From contig CAIMPC010000007.1 in the NCBI GenBank assembly GCA_903843285.1, positions 28,730-92,729 of the forward strand: a DNA stretch of 64,000 nt. The letters run 5' to 3'. Below the pieces are notes generated by a model. It was not told where the DNA came from and ran no database searches. It worked only from the letters and a program-made list of their open reading frames with translations. A program made the position numbers and the translations under genes. Of the stretch, positions 6,910-63,017 are shown piece by piece (position 1 is the first letter of the stretch; every line of letters starts with the position of its first letter). The stretch comes from Candidatus Omnitrophota bacterium. Lineage in GTDB: Bacteria > Omnitrophota > Gorgyraeia > 2-01-FULL-45-10.

Positions 6910-7551
6910 ATGTACAATGCTATGTTGAAAGAGATAAGAGATTCCCTCCAGAGGGGTGACCGTAAGGTTGTAGAGAAACTGACTTCTCAGGCGTTTGAAC
7001 AGGGTGTGAATATAAGGGAGATAATAAATTCAGCCCTCGTAGCCGGGATGGAAATTATCGGCGCCAAGTTTAAGGCAAATGAGATTTTTATTCCGGAGGT
7101 CCTGATATCTGCCAGGGCGATGCATGCCGGAATGGCTGTTCTCGAGCCGCACTTCGTAAAACATGGCATAAAACCTGTCGGCAAGGTGCTGATAGGCACA
7201 GTTAAGGGCGACCTGCACGATATCGGAAAAAATATAGTCAGCATGATGTTGAGAGGCGCGTGTTTTGAGATAGACGATCTGGGTATAGATGTGAGTCCGC
7301 AGAAGTTCATCGATGCCGTCAGAGCCAAAGAGATAGACGTGATCGCGATGTCATCGCTCCTTACTACATCTATGCATGCTATGCGAGAAACCATAAATGC
7401 CCTTACTGCCTCCGGATTGCGCAATAAAGTTAAAGTGATTGTGGGTGGTGCTCCTGTAACGCAGGAGTTTGCAAAGTCGATCGGCGCAGATGGCTATGCT
7501 AAGGATGCCGCTACGGCCGTGGATAAAGTCAAAGAACTGTTGGTGGGATGA
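6910..7551 (+). CDS. Stand-alone cobalamin (corrinoid)-binding protein, MtaC/MtbC-like
   Basis: 213 aa. N-terminal helical cap followed by a Rossmann B12-binding domain. DxHxxG motif (GDLHDIGKNIV). SxL (MSSLLTT). GG (VIVGGAP). No methyltransferase partner gene adjacent. Confidence 0.7.
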   Translation: MYNAMLKEIRDSLQRGDRKVVEKLTSQAFEQGVNIREIINSALVAGMEIIGAKFKANEIFIPEVLISARAMHAGMAVLEPHFVKHGIKPVGKVLIGTVKGDLHDIGKNIVSMMLRGACFEIDDLGIDVSPQKFIDAVRAKEIDVIAMSSLLTTSMHAMRETINALTASGLRNKVKVIVGGAPVTQEFAKSIGADGYAKDAATAVDKVKELLVG

Positions 7552-29083: not shown

Positions 29084-30574
29084 ATGCACGACAGAGGGCT
29101 TTTATTTAATACACTGAAGAAGGCCGGCGCGCATTCTCTTATTTACGGAATGGGCATGTCTTTTACAGCGATATCGAGCATATTACTTGTACCGTTATAT
29201 ACGAAGTCCCTAACACCGGCTGACTACGGAATATATTCCCTGATAAGCATAATAGCCAGTCTGCTTTTTTTCTTATACGATTTCGGAATGATCAACGCGG
29301 TATTTCGCTGGTATTACCAGTATTCTCCGGATCAATCACACTTACGCAGGCGTGTCATCAGCACTGCACTGTTGTTCTTATTTGGCCTTGCTCTTTTCTT
29401 CACCATATTATTATGGGTCTTTGCGCCTTTCCTTTCAAGAGTTGTTCTTCATAGCGATAAATTTGCGCCATTCATAAGATTAATGCTGCTGGGAGTTTTC
29501 CTACAATCTCTTACTTGGGTACCGCTTTCCTTGCTTAGGATAAAGGAGAAGGTGCTTACCTTTACGTCCATTACTGTCTTGGGTATGATAGTAATGGTTA
29601 TTGCAAATTATCTTTTTCTGTCCATGGGTAGAGGGATAGGCGGGATATATGAGGCATATATAATAGCGTATATATTTGTCGGTGTATTTCTATATCTTAA
29701 GACACATCAGAACTACGCGATCGAGTTTTCATTGACTGAGCTTAAAGGTATGTTGAAGTTCGGAGTGCCTTACCTGCCAGTGCTTTTCTTTTCGTGGATG
29801 ATAGACTTTTCAGATCGTTATCTTCTCGGCAGACTGTCCACTCTGCAGGAAGTCGGGTTATATTCGGTTGGCTATAAACTCGGCCAGGTCATGTATATGG
29901 TCGAGAAGACTTTCCTTATAGCGTGGATACCCCTTATGCTCTCCATATACCAGCAGCATAAAGATAAGGCCCAGCATATATTCGGGGGAGTCTTCACATA
30001 TTTCAGCGTTGCCATATTTATTCTCGCATTATCAATATCCGTATTCAGCTCGGAGATAATCAGGATTTTTACTTCTCCGGCGTATTACGGCGCCGCGGCG
30101 GTAGTGCCATGGGTCGCTTTCGCGTATCTTTTGTCGGGAATCTACATCTTTATGCTGTCCGGCTTTATTATTTCAAAAAATGTGTATCTGCAGCCGGTTA
30201 TATTATTTTTATCAGCATTGGTTAACATAGGGTTGAATATAGTGCTCATACCGAAGTTCGGAATGATGGGTGCGGCGTACGCTACCGTTGTCAGCTATCT
30301 TATCGTCGCGGTATTCACCACGGTATTTTCACAGAAGTTATACCCTATCAATATAGAGTGGGTCAGGATAGCTAAAGTAGCCGTGTGCGCTGTAGTGATC
30401 TATTTTTTAAGCAGATTGGTCAATATACCGAGCATGATTATGACCGTAATGCTGAAGACGGCGCTGATCGCTTTCTTATTTGTCGCCTTATATTTCACAG
30501 GCTTCTTTAATGCATCCGAGATAAAACGGTTTAGGAACATACTTGTCAGCTGGAGGCTTCTCAGGGATGTATGA
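29084..30574 (+). CDS. Wzx-like polysaccharide flippase (MOP superfamily polysaccharide biosynthesis protein)
   Basis: 496 aa with ~12-14 predicted TM helices across the whole length. N-terminus LIYGMGMSFTAISSILLVPLYTKSLTPADYG is typical of PF01943/PF13440 members. Confidence 0.7.
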   Translation: MHDRGLLFNTLKKAGAHSLIYGMGMSFTAISSILLVPLYTKSLTPADYGIYSLISIIASLLFFLYDFGMINAVFRWYYQYSPDQSHLRRRVISTALLFLFGLALFFTILLWVFAPFLSRVVLHSDKFAPFIRLMLLGVFLQSLTWVPLSLLRIKEKVLTFTSITVLGMIVMVIANYLFLSMGRGIGGIYEAYIIAYIFVGVFLYLKTHQNYAIEFSLTELKGMLKFGVPYLPVLFFSWMIDFSDRYLLGRLSTLQEVGLYSVGYKLGQVMYMVEKTFLIAWIPLMLSIYQQHKDKAQHIFGGVFTYFSVAIFILALSISVFSSEIIRIFTSPAYYGAAAVVPWVAFAYLLSGIYIFMLSGFIISKNVYLQPVILFLSALVNIGLNIVLIPKFGMMGAAYATVVSYLIVAVFTTVFSQKLYPINIEWVRIAKVAVCAVVIYFLSRLVNIPSMIMTVMLKTALIAFLFVALYFTGFFNASEIKRFRNILVSWRLLRDV

Positions 30575-31507: not shown

Positions 31508-32380
31508 ATGACACCTATAAGTATAATAATACCGGCTTACAACGAAGTTGAGGGCATCTCTAAAGTAATAGAACACGTGAAGAGCTTCATGTCGCTCGAA
31601 AAGATAGAGCATGAGATCATAGTAGTTGACGATTGCTCGACGGACTTTACGGCCGATTCGGCTAAGGCGCAGGGAGTAACTGTCATGTCTCACCCAATTA
31701 ACAGGGGATACGGAGCTTCACTGACCACCGGGCTAAAAAAAGCCAGGTATAACAATATACTTATCATGGATGCCGACGAGAGCTATCCTGTTAAAGATGT
31801 AAAGAAGCTCCTGCCGTACGTAGATGAATATGATATGGTGGTCGGTGCCAGGCAGGGTAAGCACTTTCACGGTTCCTTATTGAAGCGTTTCTCCAGAATG
31901 GTTTTTTACGTTCTACTGGGGTATGTAACCGGCGAAAAGATACCGGATGCCAATTCCGGATTAAGGATATTTAAAAAGGATGTCGTGATGCAGTTCGAGG
32001 AAGATTTCTGCAGCGGATTCTCTTTCACCACCACGATCACCATAATACTGTTTTCGAACAGATACCTGATAAAATTTGTACCGATCGATTATATGTCACG
32101 TACAGGAAAATCGAAAGTCCGGCATCTGCACGACACGGCAAGGACGATGCAGATATTATTGCATACGATCACATACTATAATCCCATTAAAGCGTTTCTG
32201 CCTTTTTCATTAGTTTCTCTTTTTATCTTTGTTATCTCTACGGGTTTTTACATTTTTAAGATACATGATATATTCTATGGGATATCGGCCGTCATATCGC
32301 TTATCGCCTCCATGTTATTTATGGCTTTTGGTATGGCAACTTATGCGATCGTTAAAGGCTCAAGACGACAGATAAGATGA
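31508..32380 (+). CDS. GT2 polyprenyl-phosphate sugar synthase (ArnC/GtrB/DPM1-like) with C-terminal TM anchor
   Basis: The track ORF starts at 31469. The likely start is MTPISIIIPAYNE at 31508. DxD-type motifs IVVDDCSTDFT and IMDADESY. Two C-terminal TM helices, as in ArnC/GtrB. Confidence 0.8.
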   Translation: MTPISIIIPAYNEVEGISKVIEHVKSFMSLEKIEHEIIVVDDCSTDFTADSAKAQGVTVMSHPINRGYGASLTTGLKKARYNNILIMDADESYPVKDVKKLLPYVDEYDMVVGARQGKHFHGSLLKRFSRMVFYVLLGYVTGEKIPDANSGLRIFKKDVVMQFEEDFCSGFSFTTTITIILFSNRYLIKFVPIDYMSRTGKSKVRHLHDTARTMQILLHTITYYNPIKAFLPFSLVSLFIFVISTGFYIFKIHDIFYGISAVISLIASMLFMAFGMATYAIVKGSRRQIR

Positions 32381-51111: not shown

Positions 51112-51153
51112 ACATAGTTAAAGCCGAAGCATTTTTACATGAAAAGGAGCGAT

Positions 51154-51888
51154 ATGAAACGAATATACGGCTGGATTCCGGATATACCTGATAGGAGGGA
51201 TCTGTTATATAAGGCCATAAGGCCTGTTATGCGTCTGCCGGACAAAGTTGACTTAAGGACCGGTTGTTCAGCTATAGAGAATCAGGGCAGCCTTGGAAGC
51301 TGTACCGCTCAGGCGCTGGCAGGGAATCTCGAATACCTGGACAACATTATAGATTCTGAGTATACAGATGTAAGCCGATTGTTCATATATTACAATGAAC
51401 GCCTGCTCTCCGGTGATGTATCATACGACTCCGGAGCATATCTGCGGGACGGTATTAAGACATTAAAGAACTATGGATCCTGCTCCGAAGATATGTGGCC
51501 TTACGTGGTCAAGCGATTTGCCGTGAAGCCGCCGGCCGCGTGTTATTCCGATGCTAAGAACCATATTATTGTGTCCTATCACAGGATCGATACACTTTCC
51601 GAGATGCTCACCTGCCTTGCGGAGGGGTATCCGTTCGTTTTCGGTTTCTCCATATATGATAGTTTTGAGTCAGATACTGTAAAACGGACAGGTATAGTGA
51701 ATATGCCAAAGAAAAGCGAGAGCATGATAGGCGGTCACGCGGTAATGGCCGTGGGCTACGATAAGACGAAGAAACGCTTTTTGGTACGTAACTCCTGGGG
51801 TGAAGATTGGGGTATGGATGGATATTTCACAATGCCGTTCACATATCTCGAAGAGCTCGCCGCGGATTTCTGGACAATACGAAAGTAA
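51154..51888 (+). CDS. Papain-like cysteine peptidase (family C1), apparently cytoplasmic
   Basis: The track ORF starts at 51139. ATG at 51154 with AAGGAG RBS. Gln oxyanion ENQG. Cys in GSCTAQALAG. His in IGGHAVMAVGYD. Asn/Trp in NSWGEDWGMDGY. The full C1 catalytic set is conserved. Confidence 0.75.
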   Translation: MKRIYGWIPDIPDRRDLLYKAIRPVMRLPDKVDLRTGCSAIENQGSLGSCTAQALAGNLEYLDNIIDSEYTDVSRLFIYYNERLLSGDVSYDSGAYLRDGIKTLKNYGSCSEDMWPYVVKRFAVKPPAACYSDAKNHIIVSYHRIDTLSEMLTCLAEGYPFVFGFSIYDSFESDTVKRTGIVNMPKKSESMIGGHAVMAVGYDKTKKRFLVRNSWGEDWGMDGYFTMPFTYLEELAADFWTIRK

Positions 51889-51894
51889 AAGAGA

Positions 51895-52626
51895 ATGAGT
51901 CGTAACATAAGACGGGTATTATTATCACTGATCGTGCTAGCGGCAGTTATATGGGTAGCGAATCTTCCCACGTCTATTCATGTCGGTGTGAACGGATATT
52001 TCAGGCAGATACATATGCCGCTCTATGTAAAGTGGACGCAGTTTTTGGCCCGACACTATGAGTACGAAAGACTTGCAAGGCAGATAACGGCTGGTTGCAG
52101 GACTGAAGAAGAGAAGGTGCTCGCTATACTTAGATGGACCAAGAGTAATTTGAGAAATGTGCCGGCGGGCATGCCGGTATGTGATGACCACACTCTATAC
52201 ATAATTATAAGAGGTTATGGCATGCCGGGGCAGTTTCAGGACATATTTACAACATTGTGCGCGTATGCCGGGCTACCGGCTTTTTTTGGAAAAGCGTACG
52301 ACAGACAGCATAATAACAAGTATAACCTTTCTTTCGTTAAGCTGCATGGGAAATGGCGGGTCTTCGATGCCTATTATGGGAAATATTTTAAGAGCAGTAA
52401 CGGCGATATAGCAGCAGTGGAAGATATTCTCAAAGATCATTCTCTGATAAAGGGTAATGGCGTGGATGCTATCGTAATCAACGGTATTCCCTATTCAGAT
52501 TTTTACTATACTCTAGATTTGAGCACAGCTAGAAACGGGTCGACTCTTCGCCCGTATAGGCAGATGCCGTTTCAGCGGATATTGTATGAGATCAAAAAGG
52601 CATTTAAAATAGAGAAAGATGAATAA
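51895..52626 (+). CDS. Membrane-anchored transglutaminase-like (Cys-His-Asp) domain protein
   Basis: N-terminal TM helix (VLLSLIVLAAVIWVANL). TGase-like core: Cys in FTTLCAYAGLPAFF, His in FVKLHGKWRVFDAYYG, then Asp. 243 aa. Confidence 0.45.
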   Translation: MSRNIRRVLLSLIVLAAVIWVANLPTSIHVGVNGYFRQIHMPLYVKWTQFLARHYEYERLARQITAGCRTEEEKVLAILRWTKSNLRNVPAGMPVCDDHTLYIIIRGYGMPGQFQDIFTTLCAYAGLPAFFGKAYDRQHNNKYNLSFVKLHGKWRVFDAYYGKYFKSSNGDIAAVEDILKDHSLIKGNGVDAIVINGIPYSDFYYTLDLSTARNGSTLRPYRQMPFQRILYEIKKAFKIEKDE

Positions 52627-52708: not shown

Positions 52709-53713
52709 ATGTTGAACATAGGTATTGTAGGATACGGATATTGGGGGCCGAATATAGCGCGTAATTTTAGCGCTGTAGAAGGAGTTAAGGTTGCCGCAAT
52801 ATGCGACAATAGGCAGGATGCGTTAACCCGCGCGAAGAAGGCTCATCCGAATGTGGATATTTTTACGGACTATCGCGATATCACCAGGTCCAATAGTATC
52901 GACGTCGTTGCCATAGTAACGCCTGTTTCGACCCACTTTCAGCTTGCCAAAGATGCCCTTAAAAATGGCAAGCATATATTTGTGGAAAAACCGTTTACTG
53001 CAAACGTCATGGAGGCAACGAAGCTGATAGAGCTGGCCGATAAGAATAGCTTAAAGATCGCGGTTGATCACACGTTTCTGTTTACCGGAGCTGTTAAGAA
53101 GATAAAGGAGATGGTGGACGATCGTAAATTGGGAGAGCTTTACTACTACGATTCCACGAGGGTTAATTTGGGCCTCTTTCAGCATGATGTCAATGTTATA
53201 TGGGACCTGGCTCCTCATGATCTTTCAGTGATGGACTACGTAATTAAGGAGAAGCCGATTGCGATTACCGCGACCGGCATAGACCACTTTGGCAGAAACC
53301 TGGCAAATATAGCATATATAACGGTATATTTTAAGAGTAACCTTATTGCCCACTTTAATCTGAACTGGCTTTCGCCTGTCAAGATAAGGATGACGCTCAT
53401 TGGCGGAGAGAAGAGGATGCTTGTATGGAACGATCTGGAAACCGATGAGAAGATAAAGATTTATGATAAGGGCGTCAGCGTTAAAAATACGGAAAGCGTT
53501 TACAACCTTTTGGTTGAATACCGCTCAGGAGATATGTGGGCGCCTCGCGTGGATCATACTGAAGCGTTAAAATTGGAATTAGCATACTTCATCGATTGCA
53601 TCAATAAGAACAAGAATCCGATAAATGATGGTAAGGCCGGCCTCAGGATAGTGGAGATGCTAGAGGCATCTGATGCATCTCTAAGAGCGAAAGGTAAGCT
53701 TATAAAACTATGA
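52709..53713 (+). CDS. Gfo/Idh/MocA-family oxidoreductase, WbpB/WlbA-like (UDP-GlcNAcA 3-dehydrogenase candidate)
   Basis: N-terminal Rossmann IGIVGYGYWGPNIARNF. EKPF motif (HIFVEKPFT). 334 aa. Upstream region carries AAGGAGA RBS and an AT-rich putative promoter. Confidence 0.7.
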   Translation: MLNIGIVGYGYWGPNIARNFSAVEGVKVAAICDNRQDALTRAKKAHPNVDIFTDYRDITRSNSIDVVAIVTPVSTHFQLAKDALKNGKHIFVEKPFTANVMEATKLIELADKNSLKIAVDHTFLFTGAVKKIKEMVDDRKLGELYYYDSTRVNLGLFQHDVNVIWDLAPHDLSVMDYVIKEKPIAITATGIDHFGRNLANIAYITVYFKSNLIAHFNLNWLSPVKIRMTLIGGEKRMLVWNDLETDEKIKIYDKGVSVKNTESVYNLLVEYRSGDMWAPRVDHTEALKLELAYFIDCINKNKNPINDGKAGLRIVEMLEASDASLRAKGKLIKL

Positions 53714-54198
53714 ACAAATACCAGTGCATATCTGAAGATGTTAAATTAGGGAACAATTTAATTCTTTCGAAATTTATAAATCTATACGGCTGTAGCGTAG
53801 GTGATAACACTAAAGTTGGCGCCTTTGTTGAAGTGCAGAAGAATTCGCATATTGGCAAGAACTGTAAAATATCATCGCATACGTTTATATGCGAAGGCGT
53901 AACGATAAGTGATAATTGTTTTATAGGCCACGGGGTTATGTTCATTAACGATAACCATCCAAGGGCGGTGAATGCAAATGGCGGCCTGGAGTCCGAAAGC
54001 GACTGGGCCTCCAGGCTTGTCAGGACGCATATCGAGGATAATGTATCCATAGGCAGTAACGCGACCATCCTGGGTAACATCACTATCGGCCGCAATTCGG
54101 TTATCGGCGCAGGCAGCGTTGTTACCAAGAGTGTGGGGCCGGATCAGGTATGGGCCGGAAACCCCGCTAAGCCCATCAAGATGTCGCGCAAGAAATAG
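53710..54198 (+). CDS. Left-handed beta-helix (hexapeptide) N-acetyltransferase, WbpD/WlbB-like
   Basis: Hexapeptide repeats. C-terminal block RLVRTHIEDNVSIGSNATILGNITIGRNSVIGAGSVVTKSVGPDQVWAGNPAKPI is collinear with WbpD. ATGA overlap with the upstream gene. Confidence 0.7.
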   Translation: MNKYQCISEDVKLGNNLILSKFINLYGCSVGDNTKVGAFVEVQKNSHIGKNCKISSHTFICEGVTISDNCFIGHGVMFINDNHPRAVNANGGLESESDWASRLVRTHIEDNVSIGSNATILGNITIGRNSVIGAGSVVTKSVGPDQVWAGNPAKPIKMSRKK

Positions 54199-54206
54199 GA
54201 TCTAGT

Positions 54207-55217
54207 ATGCGCGCTATAAGATCAAAAAAAATCCGGGTTCTGGTGACCGGCGGAGCCGGCTTTATCGGTTCCCATTTGGTGGATGCTCTTATTGCTCACG
54301 GTTACTATGTGCGCGTTATAGATAATTTTATCAACGGCAAGCGTGAAAACATCGCGCATCATCTTTCCGCGGGGTCTTTAGAGTTATCTGCGGGAGATGT
54401 GACAAGTTCCCGGGATGTGAAAAAGGCCGTCAAGGATATGGACACGGTCTTTCATCTTGCATGTCTGGGAGTCAGACATTCGATAAAAGATCCATTCGAA
54501 AATCATAGGGTTAATGCCGAAGGCACGCTTAACGTCCTTCAAAAATCCCTGGAAGCCAGGATTAAGAAGTTGGTCTATTGTTCATCCTCAGAAGTTTATG
54601 GCACGGCAGAATATGTACCCATGGATGAGGCCCATCCAACAAAGCCGTGCACCGTTTACGGAGCTAGCAAGCTCGCCGGCGAGTCGTATGCCAGAGCTTA
54701 TTATAAAACCTATGGGTTGAATACGGTGATGTTGCGCCCCTTTAACACGTACGGGCCGAGATCTCACCATGAAGGGGACGCAGGAGAGGTTATCCCCAAA
54801 TCTATTGTGAGATCTTTAGGCGGGCGATCGATCCTAATATTCGGAGATGGATGGCAAACACGCGATTTTACGTATGTCGAGGATATGGCTAGGGCCATTA
54901 TAGCAGCTTCTTTATGCCCTAAGGCCATAGGCAAAACTCTTAATATAGGGAACGGTTCAGAAGTTTCTATAAATAAACTTACGGCTTCGATCTCAAAGAT
55001 TACGGGGAGGCCTCAGTCTGCTGTAAAGCATGGGCCTGGCAGGCCCGGCGATGTGCTGCGCTTATACTCGGATTCGTCCCTATTTCGTTCAATGACAGGC
55101 TGGTCGCCTCGTATATCGCTCGAGGAAGGTTTGAGGAAGACTACGGAATGGTTTGCGGCAAGACCCGCCGGCATATCATCGCTTTTACACCAGGAAAAAG
55201 GAATTAATTGGAGATGA
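54207..55217 (+). CDS. NAD-dependent epimerase/dehydratase (extended SDR; UDP-sugar 4-epimerase-like)
   Basis: [20 protein letters not shown] (YxxxK). SSEVYG. NTYGPR. Visibly higher GC than its neighbours. Confidence 0.72.
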   Translation: MRAIRSKKIRVLVTGGAGFIGSHLVDALIAHGYYVRVIDNFINGKRENIAHHLSAGSLELSAGDVTSSRDVKKAVKDMDTVFHLACLGVRHSIKDPFENHRVNAEGTLNVLQKSLEARIKKLVYCSSSEVYGTAEYVPMDEAHPTKPCTVYGASKLAGESYARAYYKTYGLNTVMLRPFNTYGPRSHHEGDAGEVIPKSIVRSLGGRSILIFGDGWQTRDFTYVEDMARAIIAASLCPKAIGKTLNIGNGSEVSINKLTASISKITGRPQSAVKHGPGRPGDVLRLYSDSSLFRSMTGWSPRISLEEGLRKTTEWFAARPAGISSLLHQEKGINWR

Positions 55218-56464
55218 AAAGGACCATTCCGATAGCCAGGCCGTTCATGGGAAAAGAAGAGTGCGCTGCAGCCAGTCGAGCGATACTCTCAGGCTGGGCG
55301 ACCCAAGGGCCTATGGTCAGACGCTTCGAGGAGATGTTTGCCTCCTATGTCGGTTCGACATACGCGTGCGCGGTATCGAGCTGCACTGCAGCTCTTCACG
55401 TTGCACTTATGTCGGTAGGCGTGAGGGCAGGCAATGTCGTATTGACCGTAAGCCATTCATTTATAGCAACCGCGAACGCCGTACGTCACTGCATGGCGGA
55501 ACCCGTCTTTATCGATATAGAGCCTGAAACTTATAATATGTCGCCTGACAGACTCGAAGAGCTCTTAATAGATAAGTGCGATAAGCGCGCCGGGAAGATC
55601 TATTATAAAAATGCCGGTTGGATAGCGGCAGGCGAGTCTCCGCTCGCCGTAGTCGATAGGCGTGGAAAATATTTTGGACGCGTGGGTGCTATTCTTGTGG
55701 TTCATCAGCTTGGGATGCCTTGTGACTTGGGGCGCATTCTGCCAATCGCGCGCAAGTTCGATATTCCGGTGGTGGAAGATGCTGCGTGTGCCATAGGAAG
55801 CGAAATATCTATGACTGCAGGCCGTTCATGGGAAAAGATCGGTAAACCGCATGGTGATATAGCATGCTTTAGCTTTCATCCCAGAAAAGTTATTACGACC
55901 GGTGACGGGGGGATGCTAACAACAAACGATCCCCGGCATGACCGGAATTTCCGATTATTGAGACAGCATGGCATGAGCGTATCGGACAGGGCGAGGCATC
56001 TGTCCAGGAATATAGCGGCTGAAGAATATTTAACTACGGGGTACAATTACAGGATGACGGATATTCAGGCCGCGGTTGGAATCGAACAATTGAATAGATT
56101 GAAAGGGATGATCGCTAAAAGAAGGTGCATTGCCTTAAGGTATAAAGAGAAGCTTTCCGGCATCCCGTGGCTTGGATTGCCAGTTGAGCCGGATTACGCC
56201 AGGACGAACTGGCAGAGCTATCCGGTAAGGATATTAAAGGGATCACCCTGCGGCCGAAACAGACTGATGCAGTATCTTCTGGACAATGGAATTTCCACCC
56301 GTATGGGCGTTATGAATGCGCATAGGCAGCCGCCGTATAGCAAACATCGTGAAGCTCTGCGACATTCGGAAGCGGCGCGTGGTTCGGTGCTGCTGCTGCC
56401 GATATATAACGGGTTGAAGGATGCAGAGATCAAAACAATAGCGAGGATTATTAAAGATGCCTGA
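55214..56464 (+). CDS. DegT-family aminotransferase, WbpE/WlbC-like, with ~40-aa insertion
   Basis: The track ORF starts at TTG 55208. ATG at 55214. SGWATQGP. FSFHPRKVITTGDGG (PLP Lys). YNYRMTDIQAAVGIEQL. Visibly GC-rich. Confidence 0.78.
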   Translation: MKRTIPIARPFMGKEECAAASRAILSGWATQGPMVRRFEEMFASYVGSTYACAVSSCTAALHVALMSVGVRAGNVVLTVSHSFIATANAVRHCMAEPVFIDIEPETYNMSPDRLEELLIDKCDKRAGKIYYKNAGWIAAGESPLAVVDRRGKYFGRVGAILVVHQLGMPCDLGRILPIARKFDIPVVEDAACAIGSEISMTAGRSWEKIGKPHGDIACFSFHPRKVITTGDGGMLTTNDPRHDRNFRLLRQHGMSVSDRARHLSRNIAAEEYLTTGYNYRMTDIQAAVGIEQLNRLKGMIAKRRCIALRYKEKLSGIPWLGLPVEPDYARTNWQSYPVRILKGSPCGRNRLMQYLLDNGISTRMGVMNAHRQPPYSKHREALRHSEAARGSVLLLPIYNGLKDAEIKTIARIIKDA

Positions 56465-57113
56465 AAAGCTTATCATATTCCCGTTCGGAGGGAATGCCAG
56501 AGAAACGCTTTTATCTATAATGGCGATCAATCGGAATGAACGGGTATGGGATGTTACTGGTTTCATAGATGATGATCCTGCTTTACATGGAAAAGATTGT
56601 TTGGGCGTAAAAGTTCTGGGCGGCAGAGAGATCCTGAAACGGTTCCCCGATTCAAAGATCCTGGCTGTGCCGGGCAATGCCGGTATCCATCTGAAACGAC
56701 GGGAGATTATAGAGAGCCTTGGGATCGATAAAAAGCGCTTCGTGACGATAATAGACCCGTCGGCAGCCGTTTCACCTGACGCTAAAGTCGGTTGTAATAC
56801 CATTTTGATGCGCAATGTTTTTGTGAGCTGCGGAGCTGTGGTAGGAGACCATTGCGTGGTCCTGCCGAATACCGTGATTTCACACGACAGTTCCGTAGGA
56901 GATTATTGCAGCATAGGTTCGAATGTTTCGATTTCCGGTTTTGTTGTTATCGGCCCTATGTGCTATGTAGGATCCGGCGTTAGCGTGAGAGAGCTGATCT
57001 CGATAGGTAAGGGGGCCTTGATAGGGCTCGGCGCGAATGTTATTTCCGACATTGAAGAAGGCGTTGTAGCGGTCGGGAATCCGGCGCGTGGTATAAGGAG
57101 AGCTCAGATATGA
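56457..57113 (+). CDS. NeuD/PglD-family sugar N-/O-acetyltransferase (hexapeptide)
   Basis: N-terminal Rossmann-like domain (LIIFPFGGNARET...DVTGFIDDD) plus C-terminal LbH repeats, as in PglD/NeuD. 218 aa. Confidence 0.72.
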   Translation: MPEKLIIFPFGGNARETLLSIMAINRNERVWDVTGFIDDDPALHGKDCLGVKVLGGREILKRFPDSKILAVPGNAGIHLKRREIIESLGIDKKRFVTIIDPSAAVSPDAKVGCNTILMRNVFVSCGAVVGDHCVVLPNTVISHDSSVGDYCSIGSNVSISGFVVIGPMCYVGSGVSVRELISIGKGALIGLGANVISDIEEGVVAVGNPARGIRRAQI

Positions 57114-58051
57114 ATATATCAATAGTTATCCCTGCTTACAATGAAGAGCCGAATATCGCTAACGCCATATTAAGCGTTAAGGATTTGGTGGCGCGCGTGG
57201 GTATAAGAGATTATGAGATAATAGTTGTAGACGACCATTCCGACGATAATACATTCGAGGCCGTTAAAAAATTCGGCGCAGATAATATTAATTGCATAAG
57301 GTTGAGCAGGAGAAGCGGAAGCCATACCGCGCTCCGTGCTGGCCTGGCCAATTCCCGAGGAGATGCTGTTTTGTGTATCGCGGCGGATGGGCAAGAGGAT
57401 ATCGGAGTATTGCCCGAGATGATAAAAAAACGGCTTGCTGGTGCAAAAGTCATATGGGCTTTGAAAAAAGACAGGAAAGCGGAGGCGTGGCATATGCGTA
57501 AAGCCGCACAGTTATTTTATCGCATACTGCTTTTATTGGATGAGACTCAGGAGCAGAACATAGATTTTTCAAGGGCTGATTTCTTCATGTTGGACCGTAC
57601 GGTGGTAAAAGCGATAAATGCCTGCCCCGAGAAAAATACCTCTCTCTTCGGCCTTATAGGGTGGCTGGGTTTCCGCAGTGACTTCGTCGAATATGATAGA
57701 AAGCCGCGCGTCAGAGGCAAGACCAAATGGAGTTTCAAACGGCGCCTGCGCCTGGCAAGGGATTGGATTATTGCGTTTTCCGGTCTGCCGCTTAAAATAA
57801 TGTCAATCATGGGCGCGGTAGTGGCCACCGCCGGGTTTATTTATGGGGCGTTTCTCATAATACATGCTATTGTGGGCAAACCTGCACCTGGATGGTCGTC
57901 GATAATGGTAGCTATATTTGTTCTAGGAGGCCTTCAGATGATGATGCTAGGCGTGATAGGCGAGTATCTTTGGCGCAACCTGGATGAATCCAGAAAGAGG
58001 CCTCTATATTTTGTGGAAACATCCACGTCTAACGACGAAACAATAAGGTAG
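57110..58051 (+). CDS. GT2 polyprenyl-phosphate sugar synthase (ArnC/GtrB-like) with C-terminal TM anchor
   Basis: ISIVIPAYNEE. IVVDDHSDDNT. CIAADGQED (DxD-like). C-terminal TM helices (IMSIMGAVVATAGFIYGAFLII; IMVAIFVLGGLQMMMLGVIGEYL). Confidence 0.8.
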   Translation: MNISIVIPAYNEEPNIANAILSVKDLVARVGIRDYEIIVVDDHSDDNTFEAVKKFGADNINCIRLSRRSGSHTALRAGLANSRGDAVLCIAADGQEDIGVLPEMIKKRLAGAKVIWALKKDRKAEAWHMRKAAQLFYRILLLLDETQEQNIDFSRADFFMLDRTVVKAINACPEKNTSLFGLIGWLGFRSDFVEYDRKPRVRGKTKWSFKRRLRLARDWIIAFSGLPLKIMSIMGAVVATAGFIYGAFLIIHAIVGKPAPGWSSIMVAIFVLGGLQMMMLGVIGEYLWRNLDESRKRPLYFVETSTSNDETIR

Positions 58052-58066
58052 CGTTTACTCGCAGAT

Positions 58067-60688
58067 ATGGGCAATAACATACTTCTCATTAATCCGGCCG
58101 TAAATTCTTCATCACAGAATAAGATCGTAAGCTCTGCGATAAATACAACTTTTCCTACCAGCCTCGGTGCCATCGCCGGCTATTTAATAGCGCATGGCAT
58201 CTCTCCCGTTCGCATAATCGATGAACAGCTGGATTTTATTAAAAACGAAGACCTTGCCTTTTTAATTAATTCCCTAGAGAAGCCGCGTATAGTAGGCCTT
58301 AGCGTATTGACCATAAATTCCAAGAGGGCTTATGAGCTGGGAGCTAAAATAAAGAAAATAGACACGGATTGCGTTATCGTAGCCGGCGGTATACATCCCA
58401 CTGTATTACCCGATGAGGCGCTTTCCAATGCAGGCATAGATATAGTTGTCAGGGGAGAGGGGGAAAGGACATTTGAGGAGCTATCGCATTCGATAATTAA
58501 AGGCAGTGATTATAGCGGCATCTCCGGTGTATCATTTAAACGTAATGGTGGGATCGTCCATAATGCCGATAGGCCTTTGATCGAGGACCTCGACGAGATA
58601 CCGTCATTTCCCTATCATCTTTTTGAAAAAGATAAAGACAGGTATCCGTCATTCGGCGGCATATTTACGTCAAGAGGATGCCCGTATAACTGTATATTCT
58701 GTTCTTCCCGAAGCATTTCGGGGAAAAGATACAGGTATTTCAGCATCCAGAGGGTAATGTCCGAGATCAAAGTCCTTATCGAGAGATACGGACAAAAGAC
58801 GATATGGTTAATGGATGATAATATAGCTGGTAATAGCCGGCGCTTCATTGAGCTACTCGATTCTATAAAGGCGGCAGGTTTATCCGAGGATATAAATTTT
58901 CACGGTTCCATGCGTGCTGACAATATAAGCGAAGAGATACTTGATAGGGCGAAGGCCGCTAATTTTAAGATGATAGCCTTCGGCATGGAAACGAGTTCAG
59001 AGTCACTTATGAAGCTGATCGGTAAAGGTGAGACGGTGAAACAGGTTGTGGATGCGGTAAAGCTGACCCATAGGAAGGGTATAGCTGCCGCTACAACAAT
59101 AATCTTCGGCCTTCCCGGGGAAGTGTCCAGGGACAGATGGGATGCGATCAGGCTGGTCGATGATATGCCGCTATCGAGCATCCGGTTCAATACCCTTACG
59201 CCGTATCCGGGAACCCCTGTTTATGAGATGTTAAAGCGCCGGGGAGAGCTGGTAGTGGAAAAAGATTGGGAAAATTTCGCTGTTCAATATATGTGGGAGG
59301 GTGACGACCTGCCGTATGTCCCCAAAGGCAATGATAAATATGAGCTGATGTTTGATACTATGTTTGCGAACCTATCGTTCTATCTCAGCATAAAAGGCAT
59401 CGGAAGGCTTCTTAGGTCATCGTTTGCCGGTGGTAACGTGATAAAGATGTCCGAAAGGTGGTACCTTTCTCCGGAAAAAGTATGGAACCTTCTCCGGTTG
59501 GTTCTATTCCTGAATTTCCGGTTCTTTTCTGTGGCGCTAAAGGTTGTTGCAAATAAGTTCAATAAAAATAGCCAGCTTAAGTACGCATCCTATAAAGATG
59601 ACCTTGAAAAGTTATCGGCGTATTATGAAGGTAAGGAGCTTGCTCCAGGACCGGATGCTGTCGGAGCGCTCCAGGATTCTTATGCCGAAAAAGTGTTTGA
59701 GAATGTTGTTTATGAAAAATATGCGGACCTGCGCCGGCCTTTTTACACATTTAGCCCGTTCAATTATCAGCGGATTCCGCCTGCGGCCAGATATTATGGG
59801 CAAAAGCTTTTTAAGCGAGATAACCGACTGACCATGGCGTTTCCGTCATGGCCTTATGAGGGTTCGCTGGAACGTCTTCGTAAAGTTTTTGCCGGAAGGT
59901 CATCTGGAATAGAGTACGACCGTTTCATTAAACCCATCAGTTGGCCGGAAAATAAACGTTGTGCGCTTATACTTACACATGATATCGAAAGCGATACGAA
60001 CTGGAAGTGGGTGCGTAAAATCGCGTCCATGGAAAAAGAATTAGGTTTCAGATCATCATGGAATGTAGTCCCAAAGCTATACAAAATCGATTATGCTGTG
60101 CTGGACTGGCTTGCGCAAAACGGCTTCGAGATAGGTCTGCATGGTTATAATCATGATAATAAATTGGCTTATTTGAGCGAAGAAAGTATGAGAAATAGGC
60201 TGGAGGCAAGCAGAGATCTTATCAAGTTATATAACATAGCCGGTTTCAGGTCTCCGTCATGGCTTCGGAGTGAGCGGCTCTTTAATGTGCTGCAGGAATA
60301 TTTTTTATACGACTGCAGCGTGCCGGATGTAGACTATTTATCTCCCGCAGGCATAGGAGGATGTTGTTCCGTTTTTCCGTATATGAGAGGCAGATTGGTC
60401 GAGCTCCCGACCACTCTGCCCTATGAGTTTCCTGTTCAATGCGGAGTGAAGCCTTCCGATCTGAATGCTTTTTGGAAAGAGAAGATTTCAAAGATCAAAG
60501 AAAATATGGGATGCATTACCGTAGTCACCCACCCCGATCCTTTTTACGGCGGCAATGATTCAATGGTCAGCTCATATAAAGAATTATTGGAGGGGCTGGC
60601 AGGGGATAGAGATATTGTCTCCATGCTGCCGAGAGATGCAGCTGCACACTATCTTAAGAAGATAGGGCTTGATAAAAGAGGGGCATAG
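58067..60688 (+). CDS. Fusion protein: B12-binding radical SAM enzyme (paralog 5) fused to a C-terminal CE4/NodB-like polysaccharide deacetylase domain
   Basis: 873 aa. N-terminal B12-binding-like domain (VIVAGGIHPT, VVRGEGERT). CxxxCxxC in TSRGCPYNCIFCSS. Hydrophobic linker (VWNLLRLVLFLNFRFF). C-terminal CE4 motifs: ILTHDIESD (motif 1 variant), HGYNHD (HxxxH), GFRSPSW (RxP). Confidence 0.75.
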   Translation: MGNNILLINPAVNSSSQNKIVSSAINTTFPTSLGAIAGYLIAHGISPVRIIDEQLDFIKNEDLAFLINSLEKPRIVGLSVLTINSKRAYELGAKIKKIDTDCVIVAGGIHPTVLPDEALSNAGIDIVVRGEGERTFEELSHSIIKGSDYSGISGVSFKRNGGIVHNADRPLIEDLDEIPSFPYHLFEKDKDRYPSFGGIFTSRGCPYNCIFCSSRSISGKRYRYFSIQRVMSEIKVLIERYGQKTIWLMDDNIAGNSRRFIELLDSIKAAGLSEDINFHGSMRADNISEEILDRAKAANFKMIAFGMETSSESLMKLIGKGETVKQVVDAVKLTHRKGIAAATTIIFGLPGEVSRDRWDAIRLVDDMPLSSIRFNTLTPYPGTPVYEMLKRRGELVVEKDWENFAVQYMWEGDDLPYVPKGNDKYELMFDTMFANLSFYLSIKGIGRLLRSSFAGGNVIKMSERWYLSPEKVWNLLRLVLFLNFRFFSVALKVVANKFNKNSQLKYASYKDDLEKLSAYYEGKELAPGPDAVGALQDSYAEKVFENVVYEKYADLRRPFYTFSPFNYQRIPPAARYYGQKLFKRDNRLTMAFPSWPYEGSLERLRKVFAGRSSGIEYDRFIKPISWPENKRCALILTHDIESDTNWKWVRKIASMEKELGFRSSWNVVPKLYKIDYAVLDWLAQNGFEIGLHGYNHDNKLAYLSEESMRNRLEASRDLIKLYNIAGFRSPSWLRSERLFNVLQEYFLYDCSVPDVDYLSPAGIGGCCSVFPYMRGRLVELPTTLPYEFPVQCGVKPSDLNAFWKEKISKIKENMGCITVVTHPDPFYGGNDSMVSSYKELLEGLAGDRDIVSMLPRDAAAHYLKKIGLDKRGA

Positions 60689-60690
60689 AA

Positions 60691-61452
60691 TTGGAGAACC
60701 AGGCCTATGACGAACTCGCGCGCGTTGAAGATACACACTGGTATCATGAAAGCCGTCGAAGGCTATTGGAGTATTATCTCGACAGCGTTAAAGACGCTCT
60801 ACCCAGCTGCGCCCAAATACTCGATGTCGGGTGCGGGACCGGCGGTATGCTCAATGTGCTGGAAAAATACGGAGATATTACAGGATTAGAGATATCGGAA
60901 TATGCGTTAAGTCTATTGCTTAAGAAGCACCCTTCGGCAAAGATAAAGATAGGTTCGGCAAATGATCTCGATAATATTTTTAAAGGCCAGGCTTTTGATC
61001 TGGCCACCTTTTTCAATGTGCTATATCATAAGTGGATCGCGGATGATGTCCAGGTATTAAAAAAAGCGGCTGATATTGTAAAGCCCGGAGGATTTATTGT
61101 CTTGAACGAACCCGCGTATGGATTCCTCTATCGCGATAATGACAAGATCTGTTTTGGTGCTCGCCGATATACAAAAACAGGGATTCGCGATATCTTGACA
61201 AAAGCAGGGTTTCGCATAGTAAAAATAACCTATTTTAACAGTCTGAGCTTTCTGCCGTTAGTGGCAATAACTGCGCTTCAGCGCTCGGGCCTAATCCGTT
61301 TTAAATCAGCATCGAATGAATTACGCAGGCCGCACCGTGTAGTTAATGAGCTTCTTAAATTCATAATGTCATGCGAGCTGGCTATTATCAAGATTTTTGG
61401 AAGCATGCCATTCGGAGTATCGGTCTTCGTTTTGGCGGAAAAGGTTTCATGA
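60691..61452 (+). CDS. Class I SAM-dependent methyltransferase
   Basis: Motif I ILDVGCGTGGML. DLATFFNVLYH. KPGGFIVL. 253 aa. Confidence 0.75.
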   Translation: MENQAYDELARVEDTHWYHESRRRLLEYYLDSVKDALPSCAQILDVGCGTGGMLNVLEKYGDITGLEISEYALSLLLKKHPSAKIKIGSANDLDNIFKGQAFDLATFFNVLYHKWIADDVQVLKKAADIVKPGGFIVLNEPAYGFLYRDNDKICFGARRYTKTGIRDILTKAGFRIVKITYFNSLSFLPLVAITALQRSGLIRFKSASNELRRPHRVVNELLKFIMSCELAIIKIFGSMPFGVSVFVLAEKVS

Positions 61453-63017
61453 GCATCCCCAGCGGAAATATAAAAAAAATACATCTGCTTTATCTGCTAT
61501 TTTTTCTTCTCATCGTATATCTTGTTATGAATACCGGTATATTCTCTGATGATTATGAAGCGATGGTCAGGGCTAAATCCGAAGATTTTAGGAACATCCT
61601 GATTCCGAGCGGCAATTTTTATTACGCAGATACACCGGTCTTGAATTACACTCATTATCTGTGGTACAGATTTATCAGCATTGATAATCAGACAATTATC
61701 AACGTTCTTAAGATATCTTATATCTTATTGGCTTTCTGTTTAAGCGCGCAATTTTTTAAGATATTCGTAAAGGAGCCTCTTGCGCTTTTAATCTCATTTA
61801 TCTTCATATTTTTTCCATCGCACGATTCAACCGTTTATATGTTTATGAACCAGTACCTTACCCTTTCATTCGCTTTCTATCTTTACGCGTATTACCTTGC
61901 GCATCGTGGTAAGTTATTGTTTGCATTTTTATCAGGGATGATAGCCTCTTTTATGTCATATGGAAGCACGCCCATAGCTCTATCGCTTTGTCTACTTTTC
62001 GTCCTGAGTAAAAAGTACAAGCAGGCCGCAATTATCGTGGTCCCGAACATAATATACTCTTCATTCTTTATTATCATCACAACTATAGCTAAAATAGGGC
62101 ATCCAAGAGTATTGGAGACCCTGAATGCTTCGACTTTAGTAAAACAATTCGTGCTGCAGGTTGCAACATTTCTTGACGCGACGTGCGGTCCATCGATGTG
62201 GCTTAAGATATTCTATTCATTCTCTCAGCTCTCATTGCTATCTTTTATAATAGGTATCTTTGTCGTTATTGGTTGTTATGGGATAATCAGGCGATATTCA
62301 GCGCGATACGACCCCAGGCTGGTCATAAGCCTCGCTGTATTATTGATTACATCTTTATTTATGTTCGCCGTGACCGGCCGCTATCCGCAACTATGCTTTG
62401 GTTTAGGCAATAGAGTGTCCATATATGGAGCTTTATTATTCGCGTATCTGATAGTTCTGATGCCCGGGCCTAAGAAAAACCGGGCAGTGTTATTGAGCCT
62501 TCTTTTATTTACCATAGTAGGCGGTTCTGACCACTGGAAGAGCTGGAGCTGCCATCAACAGGCGGTCATCTCTAACATCAGGGAGAATAAAGGTCTCAGG
62601 AACTATAAGTATACCGCGGGAAATAACGATATCAGGGTGATATTTGTGTCTGGTAACCAGTTCAGCAAATACGGCCCCATCAGCAATATCGAATTCTTTT
62701 CGGAAAACTGGGTTCCCACGCACATTTGTAGACTTTTATTCGGAAGATTGCTGCCGACGGGTACTATAAATAAGAGATTTAAATATGAAGATGGTTACTT
62801 AATAGACCCCAAATATAATAACAGGATAAAAGTAGATGGTTATATAAACGTCTACGATTCAGAGAAGAATGAGCTTCTAAGGGTGGATGCCGGATCTATA
62901 AAAAGCTATATAGAGTCATTGCCTTCCGATAAGCGCCACTGGGTGCAGTTCCTCGATCTTAAACGTATGAATCAGATAATTTTGAAGCTCATGCCGCGAT
63001 TAGACTATGCAATTTAA
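61449..63017 (+). CDS. Polytopic integral membrane protein with C-terminal soluble domain (GT-C-like glycosyltransferase or polymerase candidate)
   Basis: The track ORF starts at 61371. ATG at 61449 in an ATGA overlap with the upstream stop. ~10 predicted TM helices over the first ~350 aa, then a ~190-aa hydrophilic domain. Very AT-rich coding sequence. No diagnostic motif recognised. Confidence 0.4.
   Translation: MSIPSGNIKKIHLLYLLFFLLIVYLVMNTGIFSDDYEAMVRAKSEDFRNILIPSGNFYYADTPVLNYTHYLWYRFISIDNQTIINVLKISYILLAFCLSAQFFKIFVKEPLALLISFIFIFFPSHDSTVYMFMNQYLTLSFAFYLYAYYLAHRGKLLFAFLSGMIASFMSYGSTPIALSLCLLFVLSKKYKQAAIIVVPNIIYSSFFIIITTIAKIGHPRVLETLNASTLVKQFVLQVATFLDATCGPSMWLKIFYSFSQLSLLSFIIGIFVVIGCYGIIRRYSARYDPRLVISLAVLLITSLFMFAVTGRYPQLCFGLGNRVSIYGALLFAYLIVLMPGPKKNRAVLLSLLLFTIVGGSDHWKSWSCHQQAVISNIRENKGLRNYKYTAGNNDIRVIFVSGNQFSKYGPISNIEFFSENWVPTHICRLLFGRLLPTGTINKRFKYEDGYLIDPKYNNRIKVDGYINVYDSEKNELLRVDAGSIKSYIESLPSDKRHWVQFLDLKRMNQIILKLMPRLDYAI

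Follow-up and report, generated by a model that had tools for sequence, protein, structure and literature searches.

A gene joining a B12-binding radical SAM domain to a CE4 deacetylase domain beside a polyprenyl-phosphate sugar synthase gene in an Omnitrophota bacterium

The window refers here to the whole stretch of DNA that was analysed, 64,000 nucleotides (nt) from a Candidatus Omnitrophota bacterium (assembly GCA_903843285.1, contig CAIMPC010000007.1, positions 28,730 to 92,729). It includes a complete open reading frame (ORF) in which a B12-binding domain, a radical S-adenosylmethionine (SAM) core and a CE4 deacetylase domain are joined in one gene, as was confirmed (Table 1). The stop codon of a GT2 gene lies 15 nt ahead of this ORF. 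A first-pass annotation, made from the letters of the sequence, had described the 873-residue ORF with its three CE4 motifs, a NeuD/PglD-like acetyltransferase gene and a polyprenyl-phosphate sugar synthase gene upstream; all of these were found as described. Designations beginning with P refer to proteins and those beginning with L to loci.

Table 1. Features of the fused gene and of the operon around it. Coordinates are those of the window; residue numbers are those of the fusion protein. pLDDT: predicted local distance difference test.
Feature	Coordinates	Strand	Basis or remark
Complete fusion ORF, B12-radical SAM + CE4 deacetylase	58067-60688	+	ORF list; 873 residues, ATG start
B12-binding domain, Rossmann-like, residues 26-139	58142-58483	+	PF02310, 65 bits, E 7e-18; pLDDT ~90
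Radical SAM core, residues 200-364	58664-59158	+	PF04055, 83 bits, E 3e-23
Cluster motif C205-x3-C209-x2-C212	58679-58702	+	Inside the radical SAM core
Family-specific C-terminal extension of the radical SAM half, residues 365-499	59159-59563	+	Kept in unfused ~500-residue homologs, which stop here
Variable interdomain linker, residues ~500-545	59564-59701	+	Weak conservation across 8 fusions; pLDDT <50
Conserved N-terminal extension of the CE4 family, residues ~546-625	59702-59941	+	Found in free-standing 370-440-residue homologs; pLDDT 85-91
CE4/NodB-fold catalytic domain (predicted), residues ~626-868	59942-60670	+	Motifs, C-terminal structure model
GFO/IDH/MocA protein, UDP-GlcNAc-3-dehydrogenase-like	52709-53713	+	Pfam, NCBIfam
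Small hexapeptide acetyltransferase	53710-54198	+	Pfam, NCBIfam
LegB-like 4,6-dehydratase SDR	54207-55217	+	Pfam, NCBIfam
DegT aminotransferase, PseC/LegC/ArnB-like	55208-56464	+	Pfam, NCBIfam
NeuD/PglD-like N-acetyltransferase	56457-57113	+	NeuD/PglB/VioB model, 169.6 bits, cutoff 160.8
GtrB/ArnC-like polyprenyl-phosphate GT2	57110-58051	+	PF00535; PgfS, 176 bits; ArnC, 126 bits
Class I SAM methyltransferase	60691-61452	+	Pfam; TTG start
Polytopic membrane protein with soluble C-terminal domain	61449-63017	+	~9 or more hydrophobic segments

Authenticity and rarity of the fusion

An assembly or frameshift artefact is effectively ruled out, as far as this can be done short of reads, because the same continuous fusion is encoded in other genomes and because the loci concerned are syntenic. 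Besides a 100% identical protein (P0001), seven further proteins from NCBI, Logan and ENA assemblies (P0002 to P0008, 60-74% identity) carry it. The fusion loci of P0002, P0003 and P0007, all three that were inspected (L001, from the Omnitrophota metagenome-assembled genome (MAG) GCA_016935115, L128 and L129), are syntenic with the window: the GT2 gene is conserved upstream, and the methyltransferase gene and then the membrane protein gene are conserved downstream. Both halves are well conserved among the eight fusions; the segment of residues ~500-545 varies.

The fusion is rare. When 1.84 billion representatives (50% identity) were searched exhaustively with phmmer, one full-length fusion cluster (P0006, 1293 bits) and one truncated member came up; no independent fusion of the two domains was found among the best 150 matches, a list that would not show more distant fusions scoring under ~200 bits. 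Other pairwise fusions were found in the same enzyme families or in related ones: GT2-CE4 (P0215, L130:181-5182, preceded in that locus by a fusion of hexapeptide acetyltransferase and DegT and by a B12-radical SAM gene), SDR-CE4 (P0296), class I methyltransferase joined to radical SAM in both orders (P0248, P0263, P0302), radical SAM-LPG_synthase_TM (P0282) and Alg14/GT28-like-radical SAM (P0345). The radical SAM partners in these proteins are 32-40% identical to the corresponding domain of the window (32-35% for those fused to LPG_synthase_TM and Alg14-like domains) and lie outside its ortholog family. Because the set shows so many pairwise fusions, the fusion speaks for co-function of its two halves rather than for channeling, to which the first-pass annotation had taken it to point; the interdomain linker, moreover, is variable and its modelling is of low confidence.

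The deacetylase half

The C-terminal 373 residues match free-standing proteins of 370-440 residues end to end (31-52% identity). The canonical Pfam model Polysacc_deac_1 (PF01522) narrowly misses this region (19.2 bits, cutoff 23.1), and DUF2334 (PF10096), which presumably belongs to the same Pfam clan as the CE4/polysaccharide deacetylases, matches residues 633-747 above its cutoff (37.8 bits, cutoff 26). Despite the PF01522 miss, the distorted (beta/alpha) NodB barrel fold of CE4 enzymes is predicted for the domain, since its structure model (AlphaFold, last 373 residues, 57 homologs; pLDDT 88, predicted template modelling score (pTM) 0.89) is matched in Foldseek by CE4 enzymes only: 3rxz (E 1e-11), HpPgdA, PuuE, 1z7a and ArnD (8t0j, E 5e-7). 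The CE4 assignment of the first-pass annotation is thereby retained by way of DUF2334 and the model, and not by way of the PF01522 profile that it had named.

The three motifs are THDIESD (637-643), HGYNHD (692-697) and GFRSPSW (726-732). Motif 1, with the consensus 'THDID', has the D-x-D/E pattern and aligns with 'TFDVD' of 3rxz and, presumably, with 'DVD' of ArnD. D639, D/E641, H692, H696, R728 and H822 are invariant across the 57 homologs, so that the catalytic set is intact. The roles proposed for them, set by motif alignment to 3rxz and not from a bound metal, are base (D639), metal triad (D/E641-H692-H696), acid (H822, motif 5) and motif 3 arginine (R728).

The CE4 family is predicted to be cytoplasmic, like ArnD, because transmembrane-like and signal-like segments are absent from 118 of the 119 free-standing homologs. 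This bears on the reading of the domain as a classical deacetylase of a finished extracellular polymer (PgaB/IcaB/PgdA-like) or as a dead scaffold, which would agree with the best family-level labels of this half, which are generic ('polysaccharide deacetylase'), and with its sub-threshold PF01522 score; given the invariant catalytic residues and the family without export signals, that reading is regarded as very improbable. Membership in ArnD fails at the sequence level: neither the C-terminal 373 residues nor two homologs gave an NCBIfam ArnD match at E <= 1. The likeness to ArnD drawn in the first-pass annotation is kept in the sense of 'works like', on the side of structure (ArnD is among the neighbours of the model) and of context: a predicted cytoplasmic family, a GT2 gene directly upstream and a known GT2-CE4 fusion (P0215).

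Two further features of the family were observed. The ~80-residue N-terminal extension, which the solved CE4 structures matching the barrel lack, includes the near-invariant residues E550, Y552, P558, Y567, R575, P593, P596 and E602 and the motifs RP-YT and PF-Y. In a Nitrospirota MAG (L017:8753-9962), a CE4 homolog between GT2 and radical SAM genes is split into two overlapping ORFs (74-80 bits each), which may be due to a frameshift, a pseudogene or a sequencing error.

The radical SAM half

The N-terminal 500 residues belong to a sharply bounded family of ~500-residue proteins (45-79% identity; the next step is at <=36%). The thirty species representatives identified belong to Omnitrophota, Nitrospirota, Desulfobacterota, Magnetococcales, Nitrospinota, Elusimicrobiota, Hydrogenedentota, Bdellovibrionota, Rhodospirillaceae and a Clostridiales MAG, about ten phyla overall. 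This orphan family has hundreds of members at 50-66% identity. The cluster ligands C205, C209 and C212 are invariant in 26 members; W465, L482, R485 and F486 are invariant in the C-terminal extension.

Judged from its sequence, this half has the hallmarks of class B cobalamin-dependent radical SAM enzymes, a CxxxCxxC core and an N-terminal B12 Rossmann domain. These are shared with the class B methyltransferases QCMT/MgmA, TokK, CysS and GenK; the helical, amphipathic C-terminal extension is, in contrast, specific to the family of the window. The closest solved relative by sequence is QCMT, a Csp3 methyltransferase (9ccb, 78 bits), and identity to any solved member is <=19%. Foldseek matches include TsrM, QCMT/MgmA, OxsB, TokK and CysS (E 1e-17 to 1e-20) and, among the top ones, AprD4 (E 5e-19, TMt 0.75). 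Identification with a named class B family was rejected, all NCBIfam scores being far under the cutoffs: 164 bits for BchE (TIGR02026, cutoff 481), 142.6 for HpnJ (TIGR03471, cutoff 577.6; second-best NCBIfam match) and 119 for QCMT (cutoff 360).

AprD4 is not known to use cobalamin. Its high structural rank would allow a non-methylating radical SAM domain, acting as an AprD4-like 1,2-diol dehydratase (deoxygenation) or as an epimerase, with all methylation left to the class I methyltransferase; the diverse chemistry hosted by class B-like folds (PMC12931638) is in line with this. Such a function is quite improbable in view of the clear B12-binding domain and of the AprD4 NCBIfam score, 49 bits as against 119-164 for the B12-dependent families.

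The last helix of the family (residues 469-499) is amphipathic to hydrophobic, with a Kyte-Doolittle 19-residue maximum of 1.66, and is a helix in the structure model. The C-terminal extension is probably a membrane-surface element. The 'hydrophobic linker' of the first-pass annotation thus corresponds to a real hydrophobic helix, which is the conserved C-terminal helix of the radical SAM family rather than an obvious transmembrane segment. A transmembrane helix placing the CE4 domain in the periplasm was considered and is unlikely: the hydropathy is borderline, an invariant arginine lies mid-helix, the lysine-rich side violates the positive-inside rule, the CE4 family has no export signals, and in unfused homologs some other segment is usually more hydrophobic than the equivalent helix. 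There is no good reason for a membrane span between the two domains, and both are predicted to be cytoplasmic. The full-length model was made from an alignment (A5) that is shallow in its C-terminal half (pTM 0.61); another alignment (A4: fusions plus both unfused families) was set aside, as the CE4 N-termini were scattered over the radical SAM domain.

Three proteins related to this half have other architectures. P0025 (1105 residues) and P0015 (726 residues, truncated) carry a 60% identical radical SAM half followed by a ~600-residue C-terminal region without Pfam match. In P0265 (650 residues, 36% identity), an intein splicing domain separates the B12-binding domain from the radical SAM core.

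Gene neighbourhoods of the two families

Six-frame ORFs of fetched loci were searched with the proteins of the window. The radical SAM-centred sample includes 31 non-redundant loci from about ten phyla and the CE4-centred sample 39 metagenome loci; kinship between loci was ignored in both.

In 27 of the 31 loci a GT2 homolog lies within 7 kb of the radical SAM gene; in 13 it is the immediate neighbour on the same strand. The other neighbours are DegT (24 loci), SDR (18), GFO dehydrogenase (15), CE4 (10, a separate gene in all but the fusion locus), class I methyltransferase (8) and the 548-residue membrane protein (6). CE4 and methyltransferase genes co-occur (both 8, CE4 without methyltransferase 2, methyltransferase without CE4 0, neither 21; Fisher p = 5.7e-6). 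The corresponding table for CE4 and the NeuD-like acetyltransferase (1/9/5/16) is not significant: the pair was found in 1 of the 10 CE4-positive radical SAM loci and in 0 of the 39 CE4-centred loci. The coupling of CE4 to the NeuD-like enzyme, on which the first-pass annotation had based its acylation step, is therefore not retained; the partner is the class I methyltransferase instead.

The 39 CE4 loci show a recurrent string: GFO dehydrogenase, small hexapeptide acetyltransferase, WbpE-like aminotransferase (DegT), CE4, methyltransferase, GT2. CE4 co-varies with the first three of these. An orthologous radical SAM gene occurs in just 2 of the 39; other B12-radical SAM paralogs are frequent there. 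Where the two are neighbours, the usual order is CE4 then radical SAM; a Nitrospinota locus (L024) has radical SAM, CE4 and methyltransferase in that order, the arrangement from which a fusion would derive. In this picture the GT2 is the hub, the radical SAM enzyme is one accessory and CE4 with the methyltransferase another, and the gene of the window fuses both accessories.

The same data allow for two separate stages, in which the radical SAM domain acts on a soluble nucleotide sugar (C-methylation, deoxygenation or epimerisation) and CE4 acts later, on the lipid-linked or the nucleotide sugar, the fusion serving only co-expression and stoichiometry. The two genes are mostly unfused, often in the opposite order and often one without the other; fusions between pathway enzymes are promiscuous here and the interdomain linker is variable; and AprD4- and GenK-type enzymes use soluble glycosides. 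On the other hand, the most constant neighbour of the radical SAM gene is a membrane GT2 and not a nucleotide-sugar enzyme, the proteins of the radical SAM family end in a conserved amphipathic helix that contains an invariant arginine, and more distant relatives outside the ortholog family are fused to LPG_synthase_TM and Alg14-like domains. This two-stage arrangement is on the whole unlikely.

The operon

The five genes from 52709 to 57113 overlap or abut; they are found in the same order in L001 and L128 and recur in radical SAM and CE4 loci. The GT2 is predicted from its sequence to be a GtrB/ArnC-type polyprenyl-phosphate sugar synthase: among solved relatives, GtrB of Synechocystis (5ekp) matches over the full length with 216 bits and ArnC with 114-122 bits, and hydropathy indicates two C-terminal transmembrane-like segments (~228-247 and 271-278).

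The methyltransferase gene starts 2 nt past the fusion stop and is preceded by a Shine-Dalgarno-like sequence, GAGGGG. Its product has solved relatives such as DesVI, TylM1 and CalS10 (30-38 bits), N,N-dimethyltransferases of amino sugars, which gives a suggestive but weak indication of an amine N-methyltransferase; no NodS Pfam match was found at E <= 0.01.

The longest ORF of the membrane protein starts at 61371 and overlaps the methyltransferase gene by 82 nt. Alignment with homologs makes the ATG at 61449 the likely real start; the overlap of 4 nt that results is typical of translational coupling. This gene adjoins radical SAM or methyltransferase genes in L001, L007, L008, L014, L022 and L128. 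Its product has a GT-C-like look, with an invariant Asp in an 'SDD' directly past the first transmembrane segment and an invariant 'HDS' motif, and is a candidate GT-C-type transferase for the lipid-linked sugar. Pfam gives weak GtrII/EpsG matches (E 0.0007-0.6; for GtrII, 0.005-0.6), and the counterpart in L003 scores 24.6 bits with PMT_2 (cutoff 26.1).

Proposed pathway

The preferred reading, given about an even chance, is that the fused gene encodes a bifunctional tailoring enzyme, cytoplasmic and associated with the membrane surface, acting on a polyprenyl-phosphate-linked acetamido sugar in a glycosylation module of the three-component type. The upstream genes would lead to a nucleotide-activated acetamido-deoxy-hexose (step 1), which the GT2 would load onto polyprenyl phosphate, a known chemistry for this family (step 2). 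The CE4 domain would then strip one N-acetyl group from the lipid-linked sugar by Asp-His-His metal-dependent hydrolysis, following the ArnD-like logic for which the sequence ArnC, ArnD, ArnT is the precedent (PMC12690121) (step 3). A radical step on the same sugar would be carried out by the radical SAM domain, most likely a methylcobalamin-mediated methylation at an unactivated carbon, of the GenD1 or GenK kind (step 4), and the downstream methyltransferase would methylate the freed amine (step 5). The modified sugar would be flipped and put on a surface glycan by the downstream membrane protein (step 6). The lipid-linked substrate, the order of the steps, C-methylation, N-methylation by the class I enzyme and the acceptor are inferred.

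Loading followed by deacylation is the most economical reading because the CE4 family has no export signals, ArnD is a top structural neighbour and a GT2-CE4 fusion is known. This part of the acylate, load and deacylate logic of the first-pass annotation holds, and its link to the NeuD-like enzyme does not. The acetyl group removed more likely comes from an enzyme of the small hexapeptide type or is the native 2-N-acetyl, since CE4 co-varies with the hexapeptide set and not with NeuD. A lipid-linked substrate is favoured for the radical SAM domain because of the constant GT2 adjacency, the amphipathic tail and the membrane-related fusion partners of distant relatives. C-methylation is favoured because methylation at unactivated carbons is the reaction of most class B enzymes characterised so far (PMC12931638), because the closest solved sequence relative methylates Csp3 carbons, and because the recurring enzyme classes are the four that build garosamine (PMC4340712).

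Several points weigh against this reading. The neighbourhood counts treat related loci as independent. A deacetylase gene is lacking near the radical SAM gene in 21 of the 31 loci, and coupling of the two reactions is thus not obligatory; for the same reason the radical SAM reaction, which the first-pass annotation had placed after deacylation, does not generally depend on it. The scores obtained with the BchE and HpnJ models are far under the cutoffs, and the radical step may be other than a methylation, as class B includes non-methylating members (PMC12931638): OxsB and HpnJ catalyse ring contraction and BchE cyclisation, and the structurally similar AprD4 catalyses dehydration. The radical SAM domain could act on a nucleotide sugar instead of a lipid-linked one. 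Neither Pfam nor a BLAST comparison with a PMT_2 protein of the window gave a significant match that would make the membrane protein a GT-C enzyme. No ORF of at least 80 residues encoding a GtrA/ArnEF-type flippase was found at 50-64 kb, the window ending ~1 kb past the membrane protein gene. Lastly, an attempt to deduce the exact sugar failed because the operon has one aminotransferase but two acetyltransferases, together with a 3-dehydrogenase and a 4,6-dehydratase.

The logic of HpnI, HpnK and HpnJ provides another outcome for step 4: after deacetylation, the radical SAM domain would contract the ring to a carbocyclic cyclitol, with no methylation. GT2, deacetylase and B12-radical SAM enzyme act in this order in the published route to hopanoid cyclitol ether (PMC13459092), HpnJ ranks second among the NCBIfam matches, and a fusion of deacetylase and radical SAM domains is what consecutive steps would predict; of the alternatives, this one best fits the fusion itself. 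It is ranked lower because most radical SAM loci have no deacetylase gene and because the anomeric phosphate linkage would be lost: ring contraction would break the phosphodiester needed by the downstream transferase, for which the operon has a candidate. The HpnJ score is moreover no better than those of BchE or other class B models. Ring contraction is accordingly considered improbable, and the preferred reading remains tailoring of the lipid-linked acetamido sugar by deacetylation and, most likely, C-methylation.

A wider proposal is less likely than not: across phyla, this uncharacterised radical SAM family would C-methylate polyprenyl-phosphate-linked amino sugars at the cytoplasmic face, and in this operon the fused CE4 domain and the N-methyltransferase would turn the product into a garosamine-like cationic surface sugar, methylated at both N and C. 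Overall, the observation made in the first pass was accurate, and its central idea of an Arn-like logic combined with radical tailoring is reasonable and partly supported.

Relation to known systems

In the Arn system (ArnC, ArnD, ArnE/F, ArnT; lipid A aminoarabinose), the acyl group is a formyl, whereas here it is presumably an acetyl; the sugar comes from UDP-GlcA decarboxylation, whereas a LegB-like 4,6-dehydratase of the hexose type is found here. The B12-radical SAM domain and the methyltransferase are added, no ArnE/F is seen, the membrane protein has no ArnT/PMT_2 match, and the CE4 domain does not belong to ArnD by sequence. The use of acetyl instead of formyl on a lipid carrier has precedents (NaxD, the Lgm system) and is therefore not new.

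HpnK is known as a YdjC-type enzyme and not as a CE4. HpnI, HpnK and HpnJ agree with the steps proposed here in all three activities and in their order on a lipid-linked amino sugar (PMC13459092), but their lipid is the hopanoid end product and not a carrier, and most loci of the radical SAM family have no deacetylase gene.

Gentamicin garosamine is built on one ring by a dehydrogenase, a pyridoxal phosphate-dependent aminotransferase, an N-methyltransferase and a cobalamin radical SAM C-methyltransferase (GenD2, GenS2, GenN, GenD1; PMC4340712). These four classes recur in the radical SAM and CE4 loci, the likeness being one of enzyme class. The gentamicin substrate is, in contrast, a soluble pseudotrisaccharide, with no acetyl protection and deprotection, lipid carrier or GT2.

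In the GtrA/GtrB/GtrC three-component systems, a GtrB-like GT2 stands beside a large polytopic membrane protein, as here; no flippase was identified here and the membrane protein is only a candidate GT-C. We know of no described three-component system in which radical SAM, deacetylase and methyltransferase enzymes tailor the sugar on its carrier. The concept of three-component extracytoplasmic glycosylation is set out in PMC11127046.

The recurrent CE4-methyltransferase-GT2 string of the CE4 loci is mirrored by the Nod trio. NodC, NodB and NodS are a GT2, a CE4 de-N-acetylase and a SAM-dependent enzyme that N-methylates the freed amine; their substrate is a free chitooligosaccharide, and no radical SAM enzyme is known to take part.

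No paper was found that deals with the radical SAM family, with the CE4 family or with a radical SAM enzyme in a GtrB/ArnC-type system. The individual activities all have precedents. The combination is new: a B12-radical SAM enzyme as the standing partner of a polyprenyl-phosphate GT2, joined here to an ArnD-like deacetylase.

The wider window

The region 29084-63017 comprises three tandem modules. In each, a DPM1/GtrB-like GT2 (31469, 41286, 57110) and a large polytopic protein of the membrane (of the PMT_2 type at 32377 and 46656, but unclassified at 61449) are accompanied by class I methyltransferases and by B12-radical SAM enzymes. Five divergent B12-radical SAM genes (34433, 39870, 44077, 48386, 58067), whose products are mutually 24-32% identical, lie within ~30 kb, together with two SPASM radical SAM genes (43098, 45531). 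A Wzx-like gene is found at 29084-30574. Between a GT4 gene and the sugar genes, the glycan operon includes a papain-family (C1) cysteine peptidase gene and a transglutaminase-core protein gene (51139-52626); the latter is also found at the equivalent place in L001. A stand-alone corrinoid protein of 213 residues (B12-binding_2 + B12-binding, 6910-7551) is encoded between asparagine synthase and AccD genes, far from the B12-radical SAM cluster.

Housekeeping genes are found at the 5' end (DnaK, DnaJ, AsnB, AccD, two GGDEF proteins, an LptD-like protein), nearly all family-assigned ORFs of at least 150 residues are on the + strand, and all 2-kb bins have a positive GC skew. These features indicate a chromosomal locus of a diderm.

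Significance

If the proposed pathway is true, sugars linked to a lipid carrier would be substrates of cobalamin-dependent radical SAM chemistry, and a new tailoring step would be added to the scheme of Arn, Gtr and related systems, in which a sugar is loaded on undecaprenyl phosphate, modified, flipped and transferred. The rare fusion serves as a Rosetta stone that links two orphan groups, a radical SAM family and a CE4 subfamily, to one pathway, and its single polypeptide allows both activities to be assayed on one substrate. The locus suggests that some uncultured diderms devote large loci to such chemistry and may carry unusual branched or methylated surface sugars.

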